The notes under the pieces were generated by a model that worked only from the letters and a program-made list of their open reading frames with translations, made no database searches and was not told the DNA's origin. The position numbers and the translations under genes were made by a program. Positions 2,200-2,333 of a stretch of DNA of 10,506 bases are shown piece after piece. Source of the stretch: a virus (lineage: Monodnaviria; Loebvirae; Hofneiviricota; Faserviricetes; Tubulavirales; Inoviridae); IMG/VR virus record IMGVR_UViG_2619619131_000001, one strand, 5' to 3'. Position 1 is the first letter of the stretch. Every line of letters begins with the position of its first letter.

Positions 2200-2333
2200 A
2201 ATTTACCTCTATGTCCTTTCAATAGAAGGTGATTATTCCATTTTTTTTACACCCGCATAGCGCATGCGTATTTACAATGCGTGTTAAATGTGATTATGAT
2301 GCACGCATGCGGTAAATATATTGCGGTGCAAAC
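2200..2333. promoter_or_regulatory. Divergent promoter/operator region between the regulator and the replication module
   Basis: Two copies of the palindrome CGCATGCG (2261-2268 and 2304-2311, 43 bp apart) plus a related CGCATAGCG (2254-2262) and further ATGCG half-sites. Candidate sigma70 promoter TTTACA (2271-2276), 18 bp, TATGAT (2295-2300), which would place the start site inside the second palindrome. Confidence 0.5.

Follow-up and report, generated by a model that had tools for sequence, protein, structure and literature searches.

A predicted immunity switch with paired palindromic operators in a dif-integrated filamentous prophage

Positions 2197-2333 are interpreted, with a probability of about three in four, as the immunity switch of a filamentous prophage integrated at dif, in which the product of a small divergently transcribed gene would bind both copies of the palindrome CGCATGCG. 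Coordinates refer to the window, the whole stretch of 10,506 nucleotides that was analysed, and the principal features are collected in Table 1. Judged from sequence, the two palindromes (O1 and O2) are very probably the binding sites of the neighbouring small repressor. A preliminary description of this DNA had proposed a repressor-operator switch bound by the divergent regulator, and the comparative evidence supports it in the inheritance of regulator and sites as one cassette, in the joint change of the regulator N-terminus and the palindrome, and in a reverse test that starts from the operator sequence. The kind of phage immunity switch is an ordinary one, with a protein family and an operator that are not yet described.

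Table 1. Features of the switch and its surroundings, in window coordinates
Feature	Position	Strand	Details
Exchangeable immunity cassette	1974..2377		regulator gene, intergenic switch and first 44 nt of ORF81
Regulator gene, 70 aa	1984..2196	-	ATG 2196; listed 71-aa ORF begins TTG 2199
Candidate extended -10 of the regulator's own promoter, TGGAATAAT	2232..2240	-	TGn + xAxAAT; unchanged in the 26%-diverged relative L005
Operator O1 (predicted), CGCATGCG	2261..2268		abuts -35 hexamer; 0/8 changes in L005
Early rightward promoter (candidate)	2271..2300	+	-35 TTTACA (2271-2276), 18-bp spacer, -10 TATGAT (2295-2300); 10/12 matches
Variable spacer segment with ATGCG half-site	2277..2284		5/6 interior polymorphisms at 2278-2283
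Operator O2 (predicted), CGCATGCG	2304..2311		over predicted transcription start; 0/8 changes in L005
GTAAATA flank of O2	2312..2318		conserved; reverse complement of TATTTAC after O1
ORF81, first gene downstream of promoter	2334..2579	+	weak match to PHROG 3104, function unknown (E 4.7e-5)
Rep, Phage_GPA-type replication endonuclease	2581..4581	+	ATG 2581; Pfam PF05840, E 1.2e-48

Prophage setting and the regulator gene

The first 1.6 kb of the window encodes hipB and hipA (Pfam HipA_C, Couple_hipA), followed at 1667-1677 by the XerC arm of dif, GGTGCGCATAA (hybrid), and thereafter by unrelated/phage sequence. Rightward of the dif arm lie genes for a Phage_GPA-type replication endonuclease, coat protein A (pIII-like), a Zot-family assembly ATPase and a secretin, and related E. 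coli chromosomes carry the same element adjoining hipBA, often in tandem copies. The window holds an inovirus prophage of the CUS-1, Ypfphi and CTXphi kind (PMC4266046), inserted at dif next to hipBA.

Several other elements were noted in passing. Just past the left junction (window 1640-1740) a 10-bp GC-rich stem, GGCCGCTGCG...CGCAGCGGCC, spans approximately 1701-1731 with T-runs on either side; it looks like a bidirectional terminator, which the scan missed, perhaps through its long loop. Downstream of the regulator and on the same strand is a 51-aa hydrophobic ORF (MQITSDLILDLLIKHFVVGSITGMTIFSLITLVLPLVMTIHNKLSKDTEIL; 1765-1920, minus strand) that is kept in relatives, and a search for family matches to it returned none. 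GC content climbs to 0.69 at 6250-6750, within the pIII-like gene (5664-7262), and this segment is probably a glycine-rich linker; the gene is 1599 bp long in the window and 1158-1356 bp in relatives, with the difference falling at these same positions. No Rfam match was found in the window.

The preliminary description was right in placing a small divergent regulator to the left of the switch and slightly wrong about its length, which is 70 aa from the ATG at 2196 (the RefSeq start in E24377A) rather than 71 aa. The protein falls in PHROG 2503, a family annotated as of unknown function, and searches of Pfam, NCBIfam and the PDB gave no match. No HTH_3/XRE domain was detected, with just scattered non-significant Pfam matches up to E 10 among 25 family members, and the ribbon-helix-helix (RHH) Pfam families gave nothing significant, the lone ParG match (E 0.025) occurring in one of the 25. 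A PDB profile search with the regulator recovered no RHH protein, structural matching gave none, and hhalign of the regulator against CopG gave 0.7%. The AlphaFold monomer shows an extended N-terminus followed by three helices (pLDDT 76.8). Since the regulator has no match in Pfam, NCBIfam or the PDB, a ribbon-helix-helix fold can only be inferred.

Homologues with 60-99% identity are present in Escherichia albertii, Salmonella, Gilliamella, Providencia, Xenorhabdus, Arsenophonus and Photorhabdus. Two sets of phage proteins share 68-70% identity with the regulator over 56 aa: the 'environmental RstR' of CTXphi/pre-CTX and the 'RstR-like' protein of the Vibrio phages VAI1/VAI2. For the allele ('environmental RstR') carried by CTXphi IB1617 and pre-CTX 17449 the value is 68%. 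The 'environmental RstR' class is one of several unrelated rstR allele classes, and our literature search for an operator or an RHH description for the regulator's allele class or family found none.

In two Vibrio records the 'RstR' is annotated as 86/87 aa (L008 109-369, pre-CTX KR063268; L010 2483-2743, CTXphi GU942563), and its first 22 codons (MHACGGRFC...) cross the predicted operators and the -35 hexamer. VAI2 and all of the enterobacterial homologues begin MEKRGDTT / MKK..KRGDTT, which gives approximately 64 aa, and the annotated Vibrio start is probably too far upstream. A further relative was seen in If1, a classical non-integrating E. coli phage, where an unannotated reading frame in the 'major intergenic region' (L045 501-650; U02303.1 5143-5292) is 46% identical to regulator residues 10-59.

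The paired palindromes, their promoter and their conservation

The core of the preliminary description proves exact to the base. It had named two exact palindromes, a candidate promoter with an 18-bp spacer, and an overlap of the second palindrome with the predicted start; CGCATGCG occurs only as O1 and O2, the hexamers lie as listed in Table 1, and O2 begins 4 bp past the -10, so that a start near 2307 falls within O2. Taken from the window by itself the signal is weak. The 8-mer has two copies in 10.5 kb with 0.29 expected, its 6-mer core GCATGC is not enriched (4 found window-wide, 4.25 expected), and promoter-like sites in the region show no excess over shuffled sequence (2 found, 1.8 expected). 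The weight of the argument therefore rests on comparison with other sequences. That palindromes and promoter match arose by chance finds its support in these same shuffles, of which 5 of 200 give two copies of the 8-mer and which contain promoter-like matches just as commonly, yet coincidence is a negligible prospect, being excluded by conservation: position-specific conservation in seven genera, a recurring spacing of the two sites, the lack of changes in a diverged relative, and the reverse test, all described below.

In the E. coli relative L005, 36 of the 137 intergenic positions differ from the window, with none of the changes among the 28 positions of O1, -35, -10 and O2 (P ~6e-5); the ATGCG half-site is altered there at 4 of its 5 positions. 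A footprint alignment was made from 11 diverged intergenic regions, oriented as in the window and drawn from seven genera (represented by E. coli, Salmonella, Xenorhabdus, Arsenophonus, Photorhabdus, Gilliamella and Vibrio). Common to them is GCATGCG-TATTTACA ... TAT.AT ... GCATG..GTAAATA, and the consensus reads GcATGCGTATTTACA.cATGC...TAT.ATG.gtGCATG..GTAAATA in a background that is otherwise unconserved. The block of O1 and -35 is kept in 9 of the 11 regions and the GCATG of O2 in all 11; L043 and the Salmonella locus L039 deviate at O1. The register is similarly constant: in 8 of 10 regions 6 bp separate the O1 centre from the -35 downstream of it, a distance of exactly 43 bp separates the CATG centres of O1 and O2, likewise in 8 of 10, and GTAAATA begins 4 bp past the O2 centre in eight, a flank that may belong to the operator. 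Most genera also have CATGC just past the -35, 9 bp after its start. The intergenic regions of Vibrio CTXphi, pre-CTX and VAI1/2 have the same layout, CGCATGCG..TATTTACA GCATGC ... TATTAT ... CGCATGCA.

Two minor elements of the preliminary description stand only in part. The degenerate third copy, CGCATAGCG at 2254-2262, does exist, yet it lacks conservation, with 4 of its 7 positions changed in L005, and it is probably not an operator. As for the several ATGCG half-sites, only that at 2277-2281 is independent of the palindromes, and it sits in a hypervariable stretch at which other genera have CATGC. This stretch stands out among nine near-identical E. coli-type cassettes, in which no change touches the regulator gene, either palindrome or either hexamer. 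The interior polymorphisms, six in number, are all transitions, located at 2278-2283 and at 2303, the base to the left of O2, and the six spacer haplotypes (ATGCGTGT, ACACGTGT, ATACGTGT, ACACACAT, ACACGCAT and ACGCGCAT) keep purine-pyrimidine alternation throughout. Positions 2278-2283 together with 2303 are a mutational or selective hot spot, and the spacer site may be a weak middle operator under diversifying selection.

For the reverse test, IMG/VR was scanned for the exact 15-mer GCATGCGTATTTACA, which gave 35 matches. A CATG centred 43 bp downstream is found in 9 of 9 matches with the regulator upstream and in 2 of 26 without it, a result that speaks for consistency rather than full independence because the nine regulator-bearing matches overlap loci found earlier via the protein. 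The coupling is not absolute. Two E. coli genomes, E100341 and AST205, have a regulator gene of 90% identity without a GCATGC operator beside it, and another family member with TGTTAACA sites adjoins Rep; we take the solitary copy for an 'orphan' repressor left by recombination. Upstream of Rep in E100341 (L006 1266-1977) and in L005 (1266-1726), small regulator genes are stacked: the 'orphan' GCATGC-type regulator without operators, a family member of 60 aa next to TGTTAACA sites, and a protein of 62 aa (MPTKHINDVLW...) whose start resembles V. cholerae RstR-calc, as judged by a published primer.

Exchange of the cassette and co-variation of regulator and palindrome

The cassette is 97-98% identical in 23 complete E. 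coli genomes, in which it is joined to different flanks, and its identity profile falls away beyond approximately 1974-2363. In E24377A it precedes a Rep of the Rep_trans type and not of the Phage_GPA type, and altogether the regulator and its operators are located upstream of three Rep types: Phage_GPA (the window and L043), Rep_trans (E24377A L003, L040, L041 and the Vibrio RstA) and Phage_CRI/G2P (Gilliamella L037). Because the same switch precedes three unrelated Rep families, the sites track the regulator and not the replication protein. The Rep of the window also belongs to PHROG 91 ('nicking at origin of replication') and has the RefSeq name 'replication endonuclease'. The assignment of the switch to a replication-module promoter in the preliminary description is supported, with the amendments that ORF81 precedes Rep and that the switch is not specific to this Rep. 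The N-terminus of ORF81, M..I(V/I)Y(Y/F)DY, recurs past the switch in phages with other operator, regulator and Rep types (L003, L029, L035 and L041). ORF81 was considered as the binding protein and rejected: ORF81-like N-termini accompany different operator types, and L005 retains the operators without ORF81.

The distribution among Rep families bears on a different role for the palindromes, in which they act as a replication or packaging signal, either as a site for Rep binding or nicking or as a single-stranded hairpin formed by the inverted repeat 2258-2269 / 2303-2314. Intergenic hairpins of inoviruses serve as origins and packaging signals, and the 12-nt arms here are 92% complementary. 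The same sites nevertheless accompany all three unrelated Rep families, at a constant distance from the -35 and -10 hexamers; the fold of the single strand is nothing out of the ordinary (z = -1.45, with 16 of 200 shuffles folding as well), and O2 is shrunk to GCATG in most relatives, so that the long hairpin is not conserved. A hairpin, origin or packaging signal on the single strand was rejected on the fold and the loss of the long inverted repeat, and we hold a replication or packaging role in general to be highly improbable.

The reading as a repressor switch is furthered by relatives whose regulators have another N-terminal segment, since these have other paired palindromes at the same positions with the architecture kept (Table 2). 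Within the GCATGC group the segment comprising R7 and D9-E16 of the regulator is invariant or nearly so. Residues 11, 13 and 15 are T/R/N with GCATGC, T/A/N with ACATGT and S/G/S with the TGCAC repeats, with residues 12 and 14 staying hydrophobic throughout; the contrast of GCATGC and ACATGT is confounded with host order (Alteromonadales), and the link between residues and operator is a correlation. Such alternation would be the pattern of the DNA-reading beta strand of ribbon-helix-helix proteins.

Table 2. N-terminal segments of the regulators and the palindromes beside them
N-terminal segment	Found in	Palindrome	Spacing
DTTVRINE	E. coli, Salmonella, Xenorhabdus, Arsenophonus, Photorhabdus, Gilliamella, Vibrio	GCATGC	43 bp
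DTTIAING	Alteromonadales	TTACATGTAA, two copies, first overlapping TTTACA	44-52 bp
SIGISNERY	62-aa E. coli type	TGCACAATTGCAC clusters, two copies	52 bp
AIAITEST	60-aa E. coli protein	TGTTAACA palindromes	

A broader conjecture, to which we give somewhat less than even odds, is that these 60-70-aa regulators are widespread, unclassified inovirus immunity repressors, in which a short, swappable recognition segment with residues 11, 13 and 15 would evolve jointly with two palindromes, 43-52 bp from one another, whose positions about a TTTACA promoter are fixed, according to a simple residue-to-base code. Were such a code to hold, R13 would for example go with the outer G of GCATGC and A13 with ACATGT.

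Several of the regulator/palindrome types occur within E. coli at the same dif locus, and other E. coli prophages have other regulator/repeat pairs at the same place, as befits an exchangeable and type-specific module. The occurrence of several types at one E. coli locus excludes a host factor as the determinant, and we therefore consider it very unlikely that the palindromes are sites for a host protein, be it a global regulator like RovA or SlyA, or XerCD. RovA binding has been reported for Ypfphi, a related phage, in the region of the putative promoter of its Rep gene (PMC4266046), and CGCAT resembles part of the XerC arm GGTGCGCATAA. Against a host protein stand the E. coli prophages at the same dif locus, with quite different paired repeats that each match another regulator N-terminus, and the persistence of the motif in hosts ranging from Vibrio to Gilliamella as long as the regulator type stays the same; nor is there a LexA box, the LexA consensus being absent in and near 2197-2333. 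For XerCD, the true dif-like junction is at 1667-1694 and there is no other dif-like 28-mer; a dif/XerCD site at the palindromes was rejected for the reason that this hybrid junction is the sole dif-like element.

Proposed mechanism, significance and comparison with known systems

In the mechanism that we infer, the 70-aa protein binds each CGCATGCG palindrome, probably as a dimer and by RHH-like recognition through T11, R13 and N15, and represses rather than activates. With O1 (abutting the -35) and O2 (over the start at ~2307) both occupied, RNA polymerase would be kept off the rightward promoter, and ORF81, Rep and probably the downstream phage genes would be silenced. Silencing would in turn maintain lysogeny and confer superinfection immunity against phages with the same cassette. 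The 43-bp spacing corresponds to approximately four helical turns and so places both sites on one face of the DNA, which would permit cooperative binding. O1 would also lie just upstream of the candidate leftward promoter, approximately 40 bp from the regulator's own start, and the same sites probably autoregulate the regulator, with either sign.

The leftward extended -10 (TGGAATAAT, matching TGn + xAxAAT) is a putative promoter, and in 5 of the 11 regions a gap of equal size, 24 bp, separates such an element from the GCATGC block. A leftward promoter using TTTACC beside O2 was rejected, with no usable -10 at 16-18 bp. The region also contains a direct repeat, AAGGTGATTAT / AATGTGATTAT, at 2226-2236 and 2287-2297 (61 bp apart), one copy of which overlaps the candidate leftward extended -10 and the other the rightward -10.

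The regulator could instead act on the same sites in a dual or activating manner, with O1 activating its own gene, like lambda CI at OR2, and O2 alone repressing rightward transcription, although we regard this as unlikely. The fixed gap of the extended -10, which has no recognisable -35, and the position of O1 between two back-to-back promoters, centred approximately 40 bp upstream of the leftward one, are in favour of activation. The leftward promoter is, however, a consensus match only and is missing in 6 of the 11 relatives, and O1 abutting the rightward -35 by itself predicts repression.

Pathogenic E. coli, Yersinia and Vibrio commonly carry filamentous prophages at dif, and how these are kept silent has, to our knowledge, been tested mainly in the CTXphi El Tor paradigm. 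The analysis provides concrete candidates, namely an operator (CGCATGCG) present twice at 43 bp, a promoter and a repressor, in a cassette that passes between genera and between phages with unrelated replication proteins. The 'environmental' rstR is on record from RS1/CTX arrays of current V. cholerae O1 outbreak strains, the Mozambican and recent Congolese ones having it in RS1env (PMC11395875). The predicted operators and the corrected gene start apply to this homologous V. cholerae O1 gene too. If the link of N-terminal segment and palindrome is true, immunity types could be read from sequence, and if the residue-to-base code is true, heteroimmunity groups could be predicted, including that of the 'environmental' rstR of RS1/pre-CTX spreading in epidemic V. 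cholerae O1.

Among small repressors of other systems, CopG (RepA) of pMV158 and Arc and Mnt of P22 are 45-83 aa long and use an N-terminal strand to read a short palindrome or pseudopalindrome that overlaps a promoter, which for CopG is that of the replication initiator operon. A possible parallel with CopG, Arc and Mnt is that the N-terminal T11-V12-R13-I14-N15 of the regulator alternates polar and hydrophobic residues and varies along with the operator. The regulator departs from CopG, Arc and Mnt in having no Pfam RHH match, three helices in the model, and sites that are 43 bp apart rather than adjacent. As with lambda CI and Cro at OR, operators are common to two divergent promoters and may couple repression with autoregulation; in contrast to lambda, the protein belongs to a different family, there are two well-separated sites instead of three adjacent ones, and there is no sign of a Cro-like antagonist or of cleavage-based induction.

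Closer in setting are Ypfphi of Yersinia pestis and CUS-1 of E. coli K1, which are dif filamentous prophages with an RstR-like gene at the same position, often in tandem (PMC4266046). The role of the RstR homologue of Ypfphi 'awaits experimental demonstration', and RovA is the sole reported binder of its Rep promoter region (PMC4266046).

The switch most resembles the rstR/ig-2 region of CTXphi, likewise a dif-integrated filamentous prophage with a divergent small repressor gene directly upstream of the replication gene. Like ig-2, the region is compact and intergenic, with back-to-back promoters and several repressor sites, which here are predicted from sequence. RstR-ET is a tetrameric helix-turn-helix protein of 112 aa, and PrstA is shared between it and LexA. 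The regulator described here has 70 aa with no HTH or other domain detected, and LexA co-regulation of the CTXphi kind was rejected for lack of a LexA box. In addition, a further ORF of 81 aa comes ahead of Rep, which belongs to the Phage_GPA type instead of RstA/Rep_trans. Three RstR sites are given for CTXphi in a published figure legend (PMC4762005). The CTXphi rstR/ig-2 block is exchangeable and allele-specific and defines immunity types, and ig-2-lux assays have demonstrated allele-specific repression for eight other rstR alleles (PMC11509585). The possibility that the Vibrio homologue is one of these eight lux-tested alleles was rejected, as the primers (PMC11509585) identify it with none of them; of the eight, rstR-6 alone has the same C-terminal end as this regulator family. 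As predicted here, the switch is the counterpart of the CTXphi rstR/ig-2 module in both function and position.
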